In this document: positions 485 to 62,876 of the stretch, in pieces
Layout: every line of letters starts with the position of its first letter
Numbering within the stretch: position 1 is the stretch's first letter
Virus record (IMG/VR): IMGVR_UViG_3300020050_007300
Location: 1-64,000 of that record
DNA length: 64,000 nucleotides
Source of the DNA: a virus
Lineage: Duplodnaviria > Caudoviricetes
Strand: one strand, 5' to 3'
The notes under the pieces: generated by a model
What the model was told of the DNA's origin: nothing
Database searches by the model: none
What the model saw: the letters and a program-made list of their open reading frames with translations, nothing else
Made by a program: the position numbers and the translations under genes

Positions 485-1012
485 ATGTTAATTGGGTTGA
501 CAGGTAGAGCGGGCGCAGGCAAAGACACAGTAGCTGACATTCTGGTAGCTGAGCACGGGTTTAAGAAGTACAGCTTTGCGGGGCCGCTCAAGCAGGCACT
601 AGCTGTTGTGGGTATTGTAGAGCCTGCAGACAGGGCGCTCAAAGAGCTGCCAATCCCTGGCAGGGGCTACAGCTACCGCAAGGCCGCGCAGACACTGGGT
701 ACAGAGTGGGCGAGAAACCTTGACAGTGAGTTTTGGCTCAACCTAGCCAACGACAAAGTTCCTGACGGAGAGAATTGGGTCATCTCTGACGTTAGGTTTG
801 AGAACGAAGTTCAGTGGGTTAGAAACCGAAACGGTTCCGTGTGGCATGTGACAGGTAGGGCAGTGAAGCTGGCAGACGGTCAGGCTACACACTCTTCTGA
901 GACACCGTTGCCCATCAAGTGTGGGGACTTCATTGTCTACAACGAAGGCACAATGAAAATGCTCGCCGAAGATGTAGCTGACTATTTGAATACGTTAGGG
1001 GTAAACACATGA
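485..1012 (+). CDS. Deoxynucleoside monophosphate kinase (T4 gp1-like)
   Basis: N-terminal P-loop GRAGAGKDT, SFAGPLK, LGTEW, VISDVRFENE motifs. Confidence 0.9.
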   Translation: MLIGLTGRAGAGKDTVADILVAEHGFKKYSFAGPLKQALAVVGIVEPADRALKELPIPGRGYSYRKAAQTLGTEWARNLDSEFWLNLANDKVPDGENWVISDVRFENEVQWVRNRNGSVWHVTGRAVKLADGQATHSSETPLPIKCGDFIVYNEGTMKMLAEDVADYLNTLGVNT

Positions 1013-4332: not shown

Positions 4333-5175
4333 ATGATCGAAGTAAAAGTAATTGCAGCCTCTGTAGCGCACCACGGCAAACCCCTGTACGCACTGCAGTG
4401 CAAGTACCACAGGTTCATTCACGGAGAAGTGATGACGCACAGAGTTTTCTCACGCAACGCCATGAGCAGTCGGGCAGTACCCGTAAAGGTTATGCTAAAG
4501 CAGGTCTGGAATGACCCCGCTATGCCTGTCCACTGGGGTCAGAACCAGCCAGGGATGCAGGCACACAGCCAGCTTTCAGGCTGGAAAAAGTCAGCGGCGG
4601 TATCTGTGTGGAAAGGTGCGGCGCGGGCGGCAGTCTGCTTTGCCTGGACCCTGGACAAGCTTGGGCTGGCGAAGCAGGTAGCCAATCGAATCCTGGAGCC
4701 TTGGCAGTGGATGCATACAATCATCTCCTCTACCGAGTGGGACAACTTCTTTGAGCTGCGTGACCACCCTGACGCACAGCCTGAGTTTCAGGTGTTGGCT
4801 AAAGCGATGAAGATAGCTATAGACGAATGCATTCCGGAAATACGGGAAAGAGTGGCTGTTACCTACCACCTAGAGAAAGGGCACCTACACCTCCCTTATG
4901 TTACGGAGGAAGAACGAACAGCACTCACCGTTCAAACACTGTTAGAGGTTAGCGCAGCTCGCTGTGCAAGAGTGTCGTACCTGACACACGACAAAAAAGT
5001 ACCGTCCGTAGAGGCAGATAAGGCTTTGTACCAAAGACTTGTGGGTTCTGCCCCTCTGCACGCAAGTCCTGTAGAACACCAGGCGTGGCCCGCGCTACGA
5101 CCAGAGACCGCCTCCGGTAACTTCCGGGGTTGGGTGCAGGCTCGTCACAGTATCTTTTCACATGTCAACCGCTAA
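4333..5175 (+). CDS. thyX: Flavin-dependent thymidylate synthase (ThyX/Thy1), phage type
   Basis: THRVFSRNAMSSRA signature, SAARCARVSY and HASPVEHQA motifs. Confidence 0.85.
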   Translation: MIEVKVIAASVAHHGKPLYALQCKYHRFIHGEVMTHRVFSRNAMSSRAVPVKVMLKQVWNDPAMPVHWGQNQPGMQAHSQLSGWKKSAAVSVWKGAARAAVCFAWTLDKLGLAKQVANRILEPWQWMHTIISSTEWDNFFELRDHPDAQPEFQVLAKAMKIAIDECIPEIRERVAVTYHLEKGHLHLPYVTEEERTALTVQTLLEVSAARCARVSYLTHDKKVPSVEADKALYQRLVGSAPLHASPVEHQAWPALRPETASGNFRGWVQARHSIFSHVNR

Positions 5176-41293: not shown

Positions 41294-41322
41294 ATTGTAC
41301 GGGAGATTTTGGGTTATGCTAA
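41294..41322 (-). promoter_or_regulatory. Sigma70-type promoter predicted to give a leaderless transcript
   Basis: TTAGCA (41322-41317) - 17 bp - TACAAT (41299-41294); predicted +1 is about 41287, the A of the ATG. Confidence 0.55.
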
Positions 41323-41401
41323 TAGTGACTGTTGTGTAGTGGCTGTTGAAAGTCAATTTGTGGTGGAAATTTTGAAAATTTTTCCGGAGGGGTAAGGCGC
41401 G

Positions 41402-41870
41402 GTATACACTTCTGTATACAAAAGTAGGTGTACGTCACTTTGTATACAACACCCACCCCTACCCTCACACTGTATACAATCCCACACTGTATACAATCTC
41501 CACATACAAAGCAACACCCCTCACCTCTCGATTGTATACACCAAACCCGACTCTACCTTCAGTGTATACACCATCCCATACACCATCCCATACACCGTCA
41601 GTACACAACACCTGAGACTGTATACACAACCCGTGCACAACCCGTACACCATCCCCTATAGTGTATACACCATCCACATACACACCTAGCATACCGTATC
41701 TCACATTGTATACACAATCTCCGTACCCCCATCTCACACTGTATACACACCTAGCATACACAACCTAACATCGTATACATAACCCGTACACAATCACACC
41801 CAGTGTATACATAACCCGCATACACCCTCTCACACTGTATACACACCTAGCATACACATGCCCCTACACT
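41402..41870. repeat. Array of 14 GTATAC palindromes in G-poor (+ strand) low-complexity DNA, including a 31-bp direct repeat
   Basis: GTATAC starts at 41402, 41414, 41442, 41472, 41489, 41534, 41564, 41620, 41663, 41708, 41741, 41773, 41805, 41837; identical 31-mers at 41732-41762 and 41828-41858. Confidence 0.9.
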
Positions 41871-41949
41871 TGACATAACTACTGACCTAGGATATTCGCG
41901 TGCATGGGCGCGCACCTTGTTAATTAGGCATACCCTAGTCCCTACGCTA

Positions 41950-41965
41950 TTACAAATTGTTACAA
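41950..41965 (+). promoter_or_regulatory. OmpR/PhoB-family type direct-repeat box (copy 1)
   Basis: TTACAAATTGTTACAA, TTACA half-sites with 11-bp period; 15/16 identical to 45126-45141. Confidence 0.45.
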
Positions 41966-41995
41966 ACTATCCCGGCTTAACTGCCCTTATACCTA

Positions 41996-42001
41996 TATAA
42001 T
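41996..42001 (+). promoter_or_regulatory. -10 element of the promoter for the candidate ncRNA / early region
   Basis: Consensus TATAAT; predicted +1 about 42008-42009 coincides with the first hairpin; no recognisable -35. Confidence 0.55.
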
Positions 42002-42008
42002 CCACTAC

Positions 42009-42881
42009 ATGCACCGGGCAACCGGGGCATAACGGGTAAGCCTAGCAACTTACCTAAAAATAAATTCTGGTAAGGTTTAAAAACCATGCTAGAATAGATA
42101 CCAGAACGAAACGATAGGCGTATAACCCGATAAGGGAAAACCCCTAGAAGATAGTTCTAAAACCTAGGTTATAATCTAACCTAAGCGAAACGGCCTGATC
42201 GTAGGCTGTAGTGGTAATAAAGGGTGGCACGGTCCTAGGGAAACCTATCGGATATAGCCTGCTGCCCCGTAAAGCACAACGCGGAAGTTCTTTAAAAATT
42301 GACGTGCATAGTAAAAAACAGTGTCGGTTAACCGCGACACAATGTAATAAAGGTTTGAAGCAACTCGCAAGAGTCTCGGCGTAGAGTGATCTAAAAAAGC
42401 ATTGTGACAAAGTAGCAAACGCTATTAATAGCCCAAAGCGGGCAACATCCCTAGGGTGTTGGATGCACGTTACATATTAAACTTAGGGGACCACTTACGA
42501 CACACCGTAGGCCCGTGCCCTATTTCCACCCCCATGCTGTAAAGTGTTTTCGTTGCTAAACGAGGCATGAGCGCAACCTGAGTGCGCTACAGTAGCGGGG
42601 TGGTATGGATGGTAAAAACCATTGCCACTAGTGCGCAGAATGACTAGTAACGTAACCCTGCCCGACGTTGAATAACGGGCTTAACTATTCAATAGAGGGT
42701 ATCCCCATTCAAACTTTGATTCATCCGGCCTAATCCCCGGTCAAACCGTGCCCCTGCACATATGCTGCATCATAGGGGTTTGCCAAAAACCATTGTTTTA
42801 ATAACGATGTATCGGCACGCACGATAAATAAATACGCTTTAACCGCCTCTCTATGGATAGGCGGTTGCGTCGTGTTTATTT
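42009..42881 (+). ncRNA. Candidate giant (~870 nt) structured non-coding RNA
   Basis: No + strand ORF of 60 aa or more; near-continuous stems; four GNRA-capped hairpins; long-range helices; H-type pseudoknot at 42660-42692; terminator-like 3' hairpin at 42826-42881. Confidence 0.62.
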
Positions 42882-42897
42882 CACTTTGGAGAAAAAT

Positions 42898-43083
42898 ATG
42901 CAATTCATTCGCTGTCAGATTTTGAGCGCTGCAATCGCTTTAGTGCCCACTTCCATCTTGGCCTATGCGCTTAACGTACAAAGTGTTACGTTAGACTTGT
43001 TCGTTATTTTTAGCGTCACAACCACTATTGCAACAGCCACTATTGCAACGGCTACTTGCTTTATTTTGACCCGCAAAGTCTAA
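42898..43083 (+). CDS. Small two-TM membrane protein, paralog A (61 aa; start revised)
   Basis: GGAG RBS; hydrophobic; shares a 26-bp exact repeat with paralog B. Confidence 0.6.
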   Translation: MQFIRCQILSAAIALVPTSILAYALNVQSVTLDLFVIFSVTTTIATATIATATCFILTRKV

Positions 43084-43096
43084 CCATAAGGTAACT

Positions 43097-43261
43097 ATGA
43101 AAATTGTCGCTTGCCTGATTGCAGCCGCTGCAATCGCTTTAGTGCCCACTTACGCTCTTGCCCATGCGGCAGACGTAAGCACTCTAACGTTTGGCTTGTT
43201 CGTTACTTACAGTGGCGTAACAATCTTTGTTGCCACCGCAATCGCAGTGCTTACAGAATGA
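43097..43261 (+). CDS. Small two-TM membrane protein, paralog B (54 aa), not in the ORF track
   Basis: TAAGG RBS; MKIVACLIAAAAIALVPTYALAHAADVSTLTFGLFVTYSGVTIFVATAIAVLTE. Confidence 0.6.
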   Translation: MKIVACLIAAAAIALVPTYALAHAADVSTLTFGLFVTYSGVTIFVATAIAVLTE

Positions 43262-43383
43262 AACAAGCCGAAAAGGCGCTGCAAATTCAGCGCACATTAG
43301 GAACCCGTGCCGCTGCGGGTTACTTGCGAAACCGTGGATGGTGCATTACTTATGCACTGCATCTACTAACAAGGGTGAAATGA
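43258..43383 (+). CDS. Small early hypothetical protein (41 aa; start revised)
   Basis: ATGA coupling; GTRAAAGYLRNRGW motif. Confidence 0.55.
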   Translation: MKQAEKALQIQRTLGTRAAAGYLRNRGWCITYALHLLTRVK

Positions 43384-43517
43384 TGTTCACCTTTGAATGC
43401 TGGTTGAACCCTGAACACTGTAACCGCATAACGGTTACAGCCCTTAATCTGTTTTTAGCTGAACAGATTGTTATAGGCCGGTTTGCGCCTCTATACCTGC
43501 AACATTTACCCGATTAG
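43380..43517 (+). CDS. Small hypothetical protein (45 aa; start revised)
   Basis: ATGA coupling; AAGG RBS. Confidence 0.45.
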   Translation: MMFTFECWLNPEHCNRITVTALNLFLAEQIVIGRFAPLYLQHLPD

Positions 43518-43525
43518 AGCCTACC

Positions 43526-43546
43526 AAATAGCCCCCTAGGCTATTT
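43526..43546 (+). terminator. Hairpin (terminator or processing site)
   Basis: AAATAGCC-CCCTA-GGCTATTT. Confidence 0.4.
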
Positions 43547-43604
43547 AGTGCGTTTTGCACTGATACCGCGCCAATATCTAGGCGCAACTTAAGAGGAATC
43601 TACC

Positions 43605-44267: not shown

Positions 44268-44413
44268 TGCTGCACCCCGCCTTGATTAGCAAGGTTTGTT
44301 TGATGGCGGTATCGGCAACGATAGATGCCATCAACCCCTACACCCCCATTTACTATGCACGCCACAATCTGCAATGGTTTTGTGATGTGCGCTTAGAGTG
44401 GATAAAAATATGA
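44267..44413 (+). CDS. Small hypothetical protein (48 aa)
   Basis: TAATG coupling; fills the gap between neighbours. Confidence 0.4.
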   Translation: MLHPALISKVCLMAVSATIDAINPYTPIYYARHNLQWFCDVRLEWIKI

Positions 44414-45125: not shown

Positions 45126-45141
45126 TTACATATTGTTACAA
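45126..45141 (+). promoter_or_regulatory. OmpR/PhoB-family type direct-repeat box (copy 2)
   Basis: TTACATATTGTTACAA contains TACATNTNGTTACA exactly. Confidence 0.45.
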
Positions 45142-45855: not shown

Positions 45856-46317
45856 GCCGTTTTTTGCTTTACCGCAGGCTTCGTATTGGCAAGGTTTAAG
45901 AAGCGCGCTATCAAGCGTTTTGATGCCTCGCCTCTGCCTTGTCAGCCTTCTTTGCGGTCTGCTTCCTCAAGGTCTAAGAATTCCCTGGGTCAAGTTCCCA
46001 GAAACCTAAACCTAAACCATAAGTAGTACAAATAAGTAGTTTAGTCCTCGATTTTGTGGTTTTTAACCCCCCCCCAGGGGGATTTTTGCTTTTTTCGACT
46101 TTTTGGAATTTTCATTTTTCATTTTTCACTTCTTATGGCACCACACTTGAAAACCTCAACTCCTAAACCTTTTTCAAAAAGAGGTTTAGTTTAGATTTTT
46201 CTCCTTTACACGGCTTCCCCACACTTGACAAGCCTTTTCGCAACAAACACGGCAACAAGCACTGCAATTCAACCAAAATACAACACCAAAAAGAGACTTG
46301 ACTATCTACCAACGTAG

Positions 46318-46363
46318 AAACTATTCAAATATTTAGTGAAATATCTAAATATTTGAATAGTTT
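46318..46363. repeat. Perfect 19-bp AT-rich inverted repeat with 8-nt spacer
   Basis: AAACTATTCAAATATTTAG-TGAAATAT-CTAAATATTTGAATAGTTT. Confidence 0.85.
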
Positions 46364-46675
46364 AGAATATGTCAGCAGCAACCGTCTAAGAAAATTCAAA
46401 ATTAGCAAAGTAGCCCATTTTCTAGCTACTGAAATAGAAATAGATGTTTGATGATTTTTTACCTGTCCAAATCGGGACTTAACAGCGTAGAAAAAATTCT
46501 AATATGTCCTCACAAACGACGAAATTTTTGACCAAACAAGTGGGGTTTTACGCAAAACCCCACAAAAACCCAGAGATAGTGACAAATTGAGCAGACCTGC
46601 CAGTGTTAGCCTGTAAACGTAAATTACCGTGCAAAAACGGAACACCGGAAAAATGCCTCGTTTACTTGAGAAGTT

Positions 46676-57747: not shown

Positions 57748-57822
57748 CTGCCCTTAGTACAGCGGACAGTACACCGGCCTTCTAAGCCGTAAACACAGGT
57801 TCGATTCCTGTAGGGCAGACCA
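57748..57822 (+). tRNA. tRNA-Arg(TCT)
   Basis: Acceptor CTGCCCT/AGGGCAG, D-stem GTAC/GTAC, loop CT-TCT-AA, T-arm ACAGG-TTCGATT-CCTGT, encoded CCA. Confidence 0.9.
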
Positions 57823-57827
57823 ATACC

Positions 57828-57902
57828 CTCAGCATAGTCTAATGGATAAGACAAGCTCCTCCTAAGAGTTAGATACAGGTTCGATTCCTGTTGCTGAGAC
57901 CA
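57828..57902 (+). tRNA. tRNA-Arg(CCT)
   Basis: Acceptor CTCAGCA/TGCTGAG, D-stem GTCT/AGAC, loop CT-CCT-AA, T-arm ACAGG-TTCGATT-CCTGT, encoded CCA. Confidence 0.92.
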
Positions 57903-62713: not shown

Positions 62714-62793
62714 CCCGACTTAGCTCAGAGGGAGAGCGGCACTAGTTGCGCAGCTAGTGTGCGTCGTAGGTTCGATTCCTACAGGAGGGGCCA
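62714..62793 (+). tRNA. Atypical tRNA-like RNA (7-bp anticodon stem, 8-nt loop TTGCGCAG, two acceptor mismatches)
   Basis: TAGCTCAG..GAGC D-arm, GTAGG-TTCGATT-CCTAC T-arm, G+CCA end. Confidence 0.6.
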
Positions 62794-62800
62794 ACCATTT

Positions 62801-62876
62801 GGCAGGGTAGCTCAGCAGGTAGAGCGCCGGGTTCATAACCCAGAGGTCGGAGGTTCAAAACCTTCCCCTGCAACCA
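62801..62876 (+). tRNA. Initiator-type tRNA-Met(CAT)
   Basis: Anticodon loop TT-CAT-AA on three G-C pairs, unpaired 1:72, T-arm GGAGG-TTCAAAA-CCTTC, encoded CCA. Confidence 0.9.

Follow-up and report, generated by a model that had tools for sequence, protein, structure and literature searches.

Large structured RNAs in phages and bacteria

To our knowledge, bacterial and phage RNAs longer than 500 nt with conserved complex folds number only a handful, and none of them has a settled function. They include GOLLD, a phage-borne RNA of the ~800-nt size class found in freshwater metagenomes, with many hairpins and multi-way junctions, one conserved and one variable part and no assigned function, as well as ROOL and OLE, likewise large and ornate, of which OLE works with a membrane protein. 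Smaller structured RNAs and leaders also bear on the locus described here: the early region of phage T7 is read by the host polymerase and its RNA is cut by RNase III; the known RNA antiterminators are 70-120 nt long; and ColE1 RNA II, ~550 nt made from a constitutive promoter, is used by a family A polymerase and depends on its fold. In the Staphylococcus Kayvirus phage K, two abundant intergenic lncRNAs, lnc001 and lnc002, have lengths of 635 and 1154 nt and an unknown role, and one of the two, transcribed from an early promoter of its own, exceeds all other phage RNAs in abundance (PMC9241854).

We analysed bases 1-64000 (the window) of a 73,929-bp IMG/VR virus record and focused on a gene-free stretch, 42009-42881, that is probably a new large structured non-coding RNA encoded on the plus strand. 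It shares with GOLLD the size class, the phage carrier, the freshwater metagenomic occurrence, the abundance of hairpins and multi-way junctions, and the division into a conserved and a variable part. Unlike GOLLD, it forms a 5' leader before an ORF, it has no Rfam match, and the tRNA genes are distant (57748-57902 and 62714-62876, that is, 15-20 kb away). It resembles ROOL and OLE as a large ornate RNA, and OLE also in that small membrane peptides follow it in two of three lineages, but it differs from both in lacking an Rfam match, in having a soluble protein as its neighbor in phage B, the closest informative relative, and in hosts and habitats. Unlike the phage K lncRNAs, which come from RNA-seq with no structure model, this stretch is known from structure and conservation alone.

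Searching Rfam 15 with cmscan across 41300-43300 gave no relevant match at the gathering score or at E values up to 10, and the same search of the homologous contigs L020, L002, L023, L019 and L022 gave none at E up to 1. The families without a match were GOLLD, ROOL, OLE, group I and II introns, RNase P, tmRNA, 6S, HEARO and riboswitches; ARAGORN found no tmRNA at the stretch either. GOLLD membership was rejected on the missing covariance-model match and the lack of adjoining tRNA genes, ROOL membership on the missing match in the window and the homologues, and OLE membership on the missing match together with a downstream membrane peptide that is not conserved in phage B. The proposal of the first-pass annotation that the RNA might be a divergent member of the GOLLD or ROOL class thus found no backing in Rfam 15, either in the window or at four homologous loci, whereas its other suggestion, a large structured non-coding plus-strand RNA of a new class heading the early arm, is supported. 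A CsrB-like sponge was also rejected, as only about five GGA motifs could be counted by eye, fewer than expected by chance. By analogy, we file the stretch as a putative new family within the large structured phage RNAs, most akin to GOLLD, ROOL and the early lncRNAs of phage K.

Genomic setting and non-coding character

The termini of the record are arbitrary, because its 3' end cuts through an ORF that continues past it, and we rejected them as physical genome ends. Genes are arranged in two divergent arms, the late genes running leftward from 41356 (a terS-like HTH protein, a 120-aa protein, a GpA-type large terminase, then the portal and others) and the early and middle genes running rightward from ~42000. 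The gene content of the phage includes a family A DNA polymerase with a weak 5'-3' exonuclease domain, an SbcCD-like pair, ThyX and Bro-N/Ant-like proteins besides four tRNAs, and the nearest cultured phages share only ~29% identity in TerL. The region between the arms, which the stretch closes on its early side, contains the following features, given with the start of the first early gene.

41412-41858, between the arms: array of 14 or more copies of the TGTATACA palindrome
41896-41916, between the arms, 3' of the TGTATACA array: conserved G+C-rich quasi-palindrome
41996-42001, plus strand: TATAAT, the -10 box of the presumed promoter, ending 7 nt before 42009
42888-42891 and 42898-42900, plus strand: Shine-Dalgarno sequence and ATG of the first early ORF

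The order is thus palindrome array, quasi-palindrome, TATAAT and then the stretch. The idea that the quasi-palindrome is a candidate cos site, which would make the stretch the first-injected end of the genome, was set aside.

A start about 7 nt after a perfect TATAAT, as first annotated, is borne out by the position of the box, which lies at an equal distance from the start region in phage B and in the more distant relative L020 and, as a one-off variant, in a fourth phage, L019. No -35 element is recognizable upstream, and because of this poor -35 a sigma-70 consensus scan misses the promoter. Within the stretch, no internal plus-strand promoter or terminator was predicted, nor was a minus-strand promoter or antisense regulator. 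Terminator-like hairpins are present in the long early arm at 43526 and 44279, and no plus-strand terminator is predicted between the stretch and 43526, so the simplest reading is a single early transcript that starts with the 0.87-kb RNA. Three RNA-library contigs, all short and of low depth, come from this region: X16 and X20 overlie parts of the stretch, X16 also spans the upstream array, and one of the three lies on the array upstream of the promoter, with DNA carry-over being possible.

Judged by its sequence, the stretch is non-coding, and coding is excluded. In agreement with the first-pass annotation, there is no plus-strand ORF of 60 aa or more within 42009-42881, the longest having 57 aa and a GTG start, and no ORF is common in position to the four homologues. 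No codon phase is seen in the substitutions that separate the window from phage B (p 0.42 and 0.33), and the gaps between the two, with lengths of 1, 1, 1, 2, 1 and 12 nt, include frame-breaking indels.

Relatives in uncultured freshwater phages

Apart from a 99.9% identical and therefore uninformative JGI contig (L018), the closest relative is phage B, an uncultured freshwater phage represented by contigs L002 and L023. On L002, whose TerL is 90% identical, the array and promoter are followed by a copy of the 5' module (42005-42480) at 75% identity, after which the contig ends. The first 121 nt of L023 overlap that end at 100% identity, and L023 continues into a 90%-identical copy of 42614-42895; both modules are therefore conserved in phage B. 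L020 and L019, with HTH proteins 60% and 67% identical, are more distant and show the same order of parts: a TGTATACA-type array, a G+C-rich box, a -10 box and then ~1.0 kb without genes, inside which the L019 contig ends. The layout of the related phages is accordingly a palindrome array, a -10 box, 0.87-1.05 kb free of genes, a long hairpin and the RBS of the first early ORF. A Logan contig with an 82%-identical TerL has the same 1.56-kb gene-free gap, known from its gene map alone, and parts of the stretch are present in public freshwater metagenomes of 12 studies. In another contig, L022, the middle and 3' parts and the peptide genes are joined to other DNA without the 5' module; the junction consists of only ~12 nt of shared sequence plus an inverted duplication, and the contig may be chimeric or rearranged. 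Contig L026, which ends before the region, was left out.

Beyond these phages, sequence searches returned next to nothing. The RNAs of the window, L020 and phage B had no blastn match among 50,697 phage records. Exact-pattern scans with conserved blocks recovered only the phage B contigs among viral contigs and no match among metagenome contigs and genome contigs, and no TerL relatives were found in the genome contigs. The stretch was thus absent from the searched cultured phages, GTDB genomes and further IMG/VR contigs. Comparing the four RNAs with 15 distant loci (TerL 53-64%) by nhmmer and blastn gave nothing significant, the best match being a 16-nt exact match in L011/L013 with E ~0.1. 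A covariance model of domain B (R1) found no distant homologue; a model of the 5' domain (R2) detected a single homologue, L019 (E 1e-4 to 2e-5), but not L020, whose homology was recognized by eye and with MAFFT. More distant relatives have DnaA-box-like repeats at the same locus.

Fold stability and borders

The plus strand of 42009-42881 has a predicted minimum free energy of -283.3 kcal/mol, compared with -242.4 +/- 8.8 kcal/mol for dinucleotide shuffles (z -4.63), whereas the minus strand reaches z -1.88 in the same test; the expectation that the stretch would fold better than shuffled sequence thus held. The homologous RNAs behave similarly on the plus strand (L020 z -5.9, phage B z -4.5). 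However, their opposite strands are also highly stable (phage B z -6.1, L020 z -5.4), so that whole-RNA z-scores alone cannot give the strand, and the 3' module taken alone folds slightly better on the minus strand. In 200-nt windows, plus-strand z-scores range from -1.2 to -3.3 across 41900-42700 and are near 0 just before 41900 and after 42900. Because z is ~0 immediately outside and the structured zone ends at ~42000 and ~42900, the borders of 42009-42881 given in the first-pass annotation appear well chosen.

Selection on plus-strand base pairing

Covariation was assessed on two to four informative sequences, too few for R-scape. For the 5' module of the window and phage B, RNAalifold gave a consensus of 112 pairs, 20 of them with double changes, at a consensus energy of -96.6 on the plus strand and -69.4 on the minus strand. 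Because a consensus of two sequences is biased, we used a non-circular test in which one sequence is folded alone and the substitutions of the other are scored on that fold, with permutation among same-base columns as the null. On the window MFE structure of the plus strand, substitutions in phage B broke 31 pairs, compared with 46.1 +/- 4.0 after permutation (P<0.0005), and produced 12 double changes, compared with 4.5 (P=0.002). The reciprocal test on the phage B MFE structure gave P=0.004 and P<0.0005. On the minus strand, nothing was significant in either test of the 5' module (P 0.58, 0.38, 0.10, 0.21). The 3' module, for which the test rests on 26 differences, gave the same but weaker picture, again on the plus strand only, with 5 broken pairs (10.5 expected under permutation; P=0.006) and 2 double changes (0.24 expected; P=0.02).

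A third variant, from Logan contigs X4/X20 of two freshwater runs, differs at seven paired sites within 42162-42314. All seven remain paired, as G-U, G-C or A-U, and the changes are mostly C-to-U opposite G, so the pairing works only in the plus-strand RNA. Strand-specific covariation with G-U pairs argues for RNA rather than duplex DNA. Together, these tests show selection on base pairing of the plus-strand RNA, not on protein or double-stranded DNA. The covariation among homologues that the first-pass annotation called for was therefore found, and on one strand only.

Predicted anatomy of the RNA

The modeled fold of the plus-strand transcript shows a 5'-terminal hairpin, only a few bases from the presumed start, a 5' module, an exchangeable middle, a 3' module and a terminal hairpin of ~22 bp at the RBS. 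Much of the detailed fold should be read as a provisional model. The elements of the 5' module (42005-42480) are as follows.

42010-42029, plus strand: 5'-terminal hairpin with a GCAA loop (GUAA and a G-U pair in phage B)
42034-42051, plus strand: second hairpin, kept in all four phages with arms shifted or extended
42064-42095, plus strand: local hairpin, in place of the helix once proposed at 42065/42106
42123-42146, plus strand: 24-nt invariant block, identical in the window and phage B against a 75% background, with a 3-bp hairpin and a 5-nt loop
42165-42183, plus strand: 7-bp hairpin; its L019 counterpart is a 9-bp helix of other sequence with a 41-nt insert
42190-42209, plus strand: AUCG-loop hairpin, loop and closing bases invariant in four phages
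42213-42269, plus strand: branched domain with several double changes relative to phage B; the contig variant keeps all changed pairs
42300-42472, plus strand: domain B, a 10-bp closing helix (42300-42309/42463-42472) around ~150 nt

Several of these elements keep their shape while their sequence changes. At the site of the 5'-terminal hairpin, L019 and L020 have hairpins of different sequence, and the second hairpin likewise recurs in L019 and/or L020 with its sequence changed. The local hairpin 42064-42095 has changed in phage B from G-C to A-U, from G-U to A-U and from U-G to C-G, and has an entirely different stem in L020. Three stem positions of the AUCG hairpin vary among G-C, A-U, G-U and C-G across the window, phage B, the X4/X20 variant, L020 and L019. 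In domain B, the inner helix 42338-42344/42400-42406 carries three consecutive double changes relative to phage B, and in L020 the same closing helix surrounds only ~22 nt. Domain content also differs: L019 lacks ~100 nt of the 5' domain and has its 41-nt insert elsewhere, and a 40-nt block, identical in phage B and L020, is absent from the window. A block related to the 24-nt block 42123-42146 is present in L019.

The remainder of the stretch consists of three parts.

42481-42613, plus strand: variable middle domain; 42526-42532/42597-42603 close a three-way junction in the window
42614-42825, plus strand: 3' module, with 90% identity to phage B and 97.5% to L022
42826-42881, plus strand: terminal hairpin of ~22 bp, A/U-rich at the base, G/C-rich at the top and interrupted by an internal loop

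In phage B, the middle 42481-42613 is replaced by an unrelated domain of 285 nt, partly shared with L020. The 3' module has two double changes, one in helix 42627-42648 and one in a helix near 42791-42809, and its 90% identity to phage B contrasts with ~62% for the neighboring proteins. The Shine-Dalgarno sequence of the first early ORF follows the terminal hairpin by 7 nt. This hairpin is no canonical terminator, none being predicted there on the plus strand, and L020 has kept its shape with a different sequence in the top stem.

These comparisons bear unevenly on the helices drawn in the first-pass annotation. All nine quoted stem sequences are present in the window, the second coordinate quoted for each being the end of the 3' arm. 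Of the hairpins with GNRA loops, the GCAA hairpins at 42014-42025 and 42363-42374 are kept in phage B, the latter, inside domain B, with a double change, whereas the GAAA hairpin at 42236-42247 retains one of its four pairs. The helix 42065/42106 keeps five of eight pairs in phage B and gives way to the covarying local hairpin 42064-42095; the helix 42121/42173 is half kept, with a competing local hairpin supported. The ~290-nt-range helix joining 42226 and 42519 finds no support, its 5' arm being changed in phage B and having no alignable partner. The helix 42526/42603 closes the window-specific middle domain, which is replaced in phage B; that at 42747/42819 could be kept there, though only with a shift and one G-U pair. 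As for a single RNA of ~870 nt, structure does extend over the whole of 42009-42881, but with the middle swapped and domain sizes differing in L019 and L020 it may not be one fixed unit.

Model of the early transcript and its fate

Considering the evidence together, we slightly favor the reading that the stretch represents a new modular RNA family, 0.87 kb here and ~1.0-1.05 kb in relatives, that occupies the 5' end of the first early transcript and is cut off to act in trans as a stable RNA. Host RNA polymerase would start a few bases after the conserved TATAAT at 41996-42001, and the first early transcript would carry the RNA as its untranslated 5' part. It would then be cut in the long terminal hairpin, much as RNase III cuts T7 early RNA, which would leave a stable RNA with hairpins at both ends. 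Like the T7 early leader, the stretch heads the early region and has a long irregular hairpin of about two helical turns just before an RBS; unlike it, the T7 leader consists mostly of promoters rather than a conserved 0.9-kb fold, and cleavage here would be by analogy.

A predicted irregular hairpin of at least ~20 bp, as expected for a T7-like leader processed by RNase III, stands between the RNA and the RBS in both the window and L020, and 42826-42881 is a candidate RNase III site. The sequence match with phage B in this part stops at the Shine-Dalgarno sequence and ATG (42888-42900), a different gene following thereafter, and the mosaic junction coincides exactly with the 3' end of the terminal hairpin. 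The length of the hairpin, about two helical turns, and the end of the match at its 3' side suggest a cut there and a stable species. Behind the shared hairpin and RBS, phage B encodes a soluble protein of 86 aa instead of a membrane peptide, whereas in L020 the long hairpin and RBS precede a small membrane peptide; the link between the RNA and membrane peptides drawn in the first-pass annotation is thus not conserved.

In the weakest step of this model, conserved loops and A-rich single strands would bind a host or phage partner early in infection. The blocks that are invariant on a 75% background (among them the 24-nt block, both arms of the closing helix and the AUCG loop), together with the A-rich single strands, point to specific contacts rather than mere stability. 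That the RNA would act in trans as a stable molecule, and not only as a switch in cis, is something we infer.

Alternative explanations

The main rival is a purely cis-acting 5' leader that stays attached to the early mRNA, conferring terminator resistance in the manner of HK022 put or lambda nut, or affecting timing or stability, with no separate stable RNA. This is possible, although we rate it clearly below the trans-acting model: the place is right and the size is wrong. The only conserved -10 box and the first RBS flank the stretch directly, no plus-strand terminator is predicted before 43526, the terminator-like hairpins at 43526 and 44279 lie further along the long early arm, and the hairpin/RBS junction is conserved in phage B and L020. 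Like put and nut, it is a structured RNA right after an early promoter, and the small 5-nt-loop hairpin in the 24-nt invariant block resembles boxB-type loops, a likeness that we treat only as a lead. However, put and nut measure 70-120 nt, and 0.9-1.05 kb far exceeds what an antiterminator of that kind needs. Inspection by eye found this one 5-nt-loop hairpin in 42123-42146 and no boxA, and no put-like or boxA/boxB pair was identified. Moreover, the RBS of the first ORF is left unsequestered in the predicted fold, and the RNA is kept while the downstream genes differ between relatives.

We regard as rather unlikely a string of independent neighboring elements (the 5' module, exchangeable inserts and the 3' module), each functioning separately and perhaps having a promoter of its own. 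Such an arrangement would fit the unequal conservation of the modules relative to phage B (75% and 90%), the swapped middle, the whole domains that are lacking or shrunken in L019 and L020, and the 40-nt block identical in phage B and L020, which could be a DNA site. Because in L022 the middle, the 3' module and the peptide genes adjoin other DNA and the 5' module is missing, the stretch may indeed be several elements, but with its ~12-nt junction and inverted duplication that contig may be chimeric or rearranged. No internal plus-strand promoter or terminator is predicted, and the full-length homologues share one order of 5' hairpin, AUCG hairpin, closing helix and terminal hairpin. Such fluidity in domain content typifies large RNAs that combine a core with peripheral arms, and also leaves room for separate elements.

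Less probable still is a part in replication or packaging, whether as a pre-primer like ColE1 RNA II, as an origin activator near the repeat array, or as DNA that is itself functional. The stretch adjoins the array of 14 or more TGTATACA palindromes and the conserved G+C-rich quasi-palindrome, more distant relatives have DnaA-box-like repeats at the same locus, and, as with RNA II, a structured RNA occurs together with a family A polymerase, here one with a weak 5'-3' exonuclease domain. Against this stands the strand-specific covariation with G-U pairs, which favors RNA over duplex DNA. Unlike RNA II, the stretch has no antisense RNA I equivalent, regulator or promoter that we could find, and it ends at an RBS; transcript-primed phage origins also need no ~900 nt of conserved structure.

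Finally, a chance or neutral spacer with functionless stems is hardly credible: many stems can always be drawn in large RNAs, and several proposed helices fail in phage B, but the z-scores and permutation tests are significant, the AUCG loop is invariant over flipped stems, and the 3' module is 90% identical next to proteins at ~62%.

Implications

The trans-acting, stable RNA that we favor can be extended to a bolder version, which we put forward tentatively and with much less confidence. Giant, ornate and unrelated to GOLLD, ROOL and OLE, the RNA could define a new class in phages. It would be the first product after DNA entry and would form a stable, hairpin-capped RNA or RNP, possibly self-assembling, that captures a host factor or blunts defense; the evolution of its exchangeable domains would parallel that of the variable arms in other large RNAs.

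A further unrelated class of this kind would be a new and experimentally convenient case, with a defined place, clear ends and natural domain swaps. Its place is the start of the early arm in a lytic-type phage, and it would help to ask what large RNAs do during infection. More generally, these observations indicate that long gene-free leaders in the genomes of uncultured phages can be under selection at the level of RNA.

Other gene-free stretches of the early arm

Behind the two peptide genes, the intergenic stretch 43262-43604 is predicted to be strongly structured (z -4.8), with 200-nt windows reaching z of about -4 to -6 on both strands. It contains a terminator-like hairpin at 43526-43546 and is conserved in L022, a JGI contig with the middle and 3' parts of the RNA, and in L023, a contig of phage B, the closest informative relative. 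A second long gene-free stretch, at 45860-46630, is low in G+C (about 41%) and contains a C8/G5 hairpin and AT-rich palindromes; Rfam returned no match for it. Further along the window, ARAGORN called a tRNA at 62714-62793, adjoining tRNA-Met, with an 8-nt anticodon loop and the anticodon gcgc, which scored only 35 bits with Rfam.

An inverted match to the closing helix and a rearranged contig

The 5' arm of the closing helix of the RNA (42300-42315) has a 16-nt inverted match (15/16) at 44349-44364, in the untranslated region ahead of an ORF at about 44398-44411. This match is kept in L022 but absent from phage B and, because of that absence, may be a chance resemblance.

In L022 (JGI 3300020044), positions 1-1410 start with window 43589..42614 in reverse complement, continue with the middle domain of phage B and then pass to the window from 43440 onward. 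The result is an inverted duplication of 150 nt whose copies are 88.7% identical; the sequence shared at the junction is only about 12 nt long. The contig is either chimeric or a natural variant that has been rearranged. L022 also carries a 40-nt block that the window lacks; the block is identical between phage B and L020, a much more distant phage. This block could be folded as a small hairpin whose loop would pair with the bases after it, giving a pseudoknot-like arrangement.

Copies of the 40-nt block
L002:20-60, minus strand, phage B copy
L020 about 4745-4706, minus strand

Elements upstream of the RNA promoter

The RNA promoter, which lacks a -35, is preceded by TGTTACA-type direct repeats (41949-41968) that phage B and L020 share and that may be activator or operator sites. 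A similar motif lies at 45131-45141, in the next AT-rich gene-free region. In the relative L019, degenerate G+C-rich tandem repeats are inserted between the G+C-rich box and the promoter (about 700-900, minus strand); gene calling had assigned an ORF of 88 aa to the other strand of this insertion.

In the interval that separates the terS-like gene from the RNA promoter, an array of TGTATACA palindromes occupies 41412-41858; phage B, L019 and L020 have such an array too. At the same locus in more distant relatives, DnaA-box-like TTATCCACA / TTGTCCACA repeats replace the palindromes.

DnaA-box-like repeats at the array locus
L011 about 4700-5010
L015 about 180-260

The contig of L015, an 83-kb relative, has a long GGTGTCT tandem repeat at its end (L015:1-160), and the terminase gene follows about 1.7 kb downstream of this repeat.

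In the window, a G+C-rich quasi-palindrome (41896-41916) separates the array from the -10 box; it is kept in all four related phages. Its placement relative to the array and terS resembles that of lambda cosN/cosB. Were this element to mark the end of the genome, the last-packaged, first-injected DNA would include the RNA gene.
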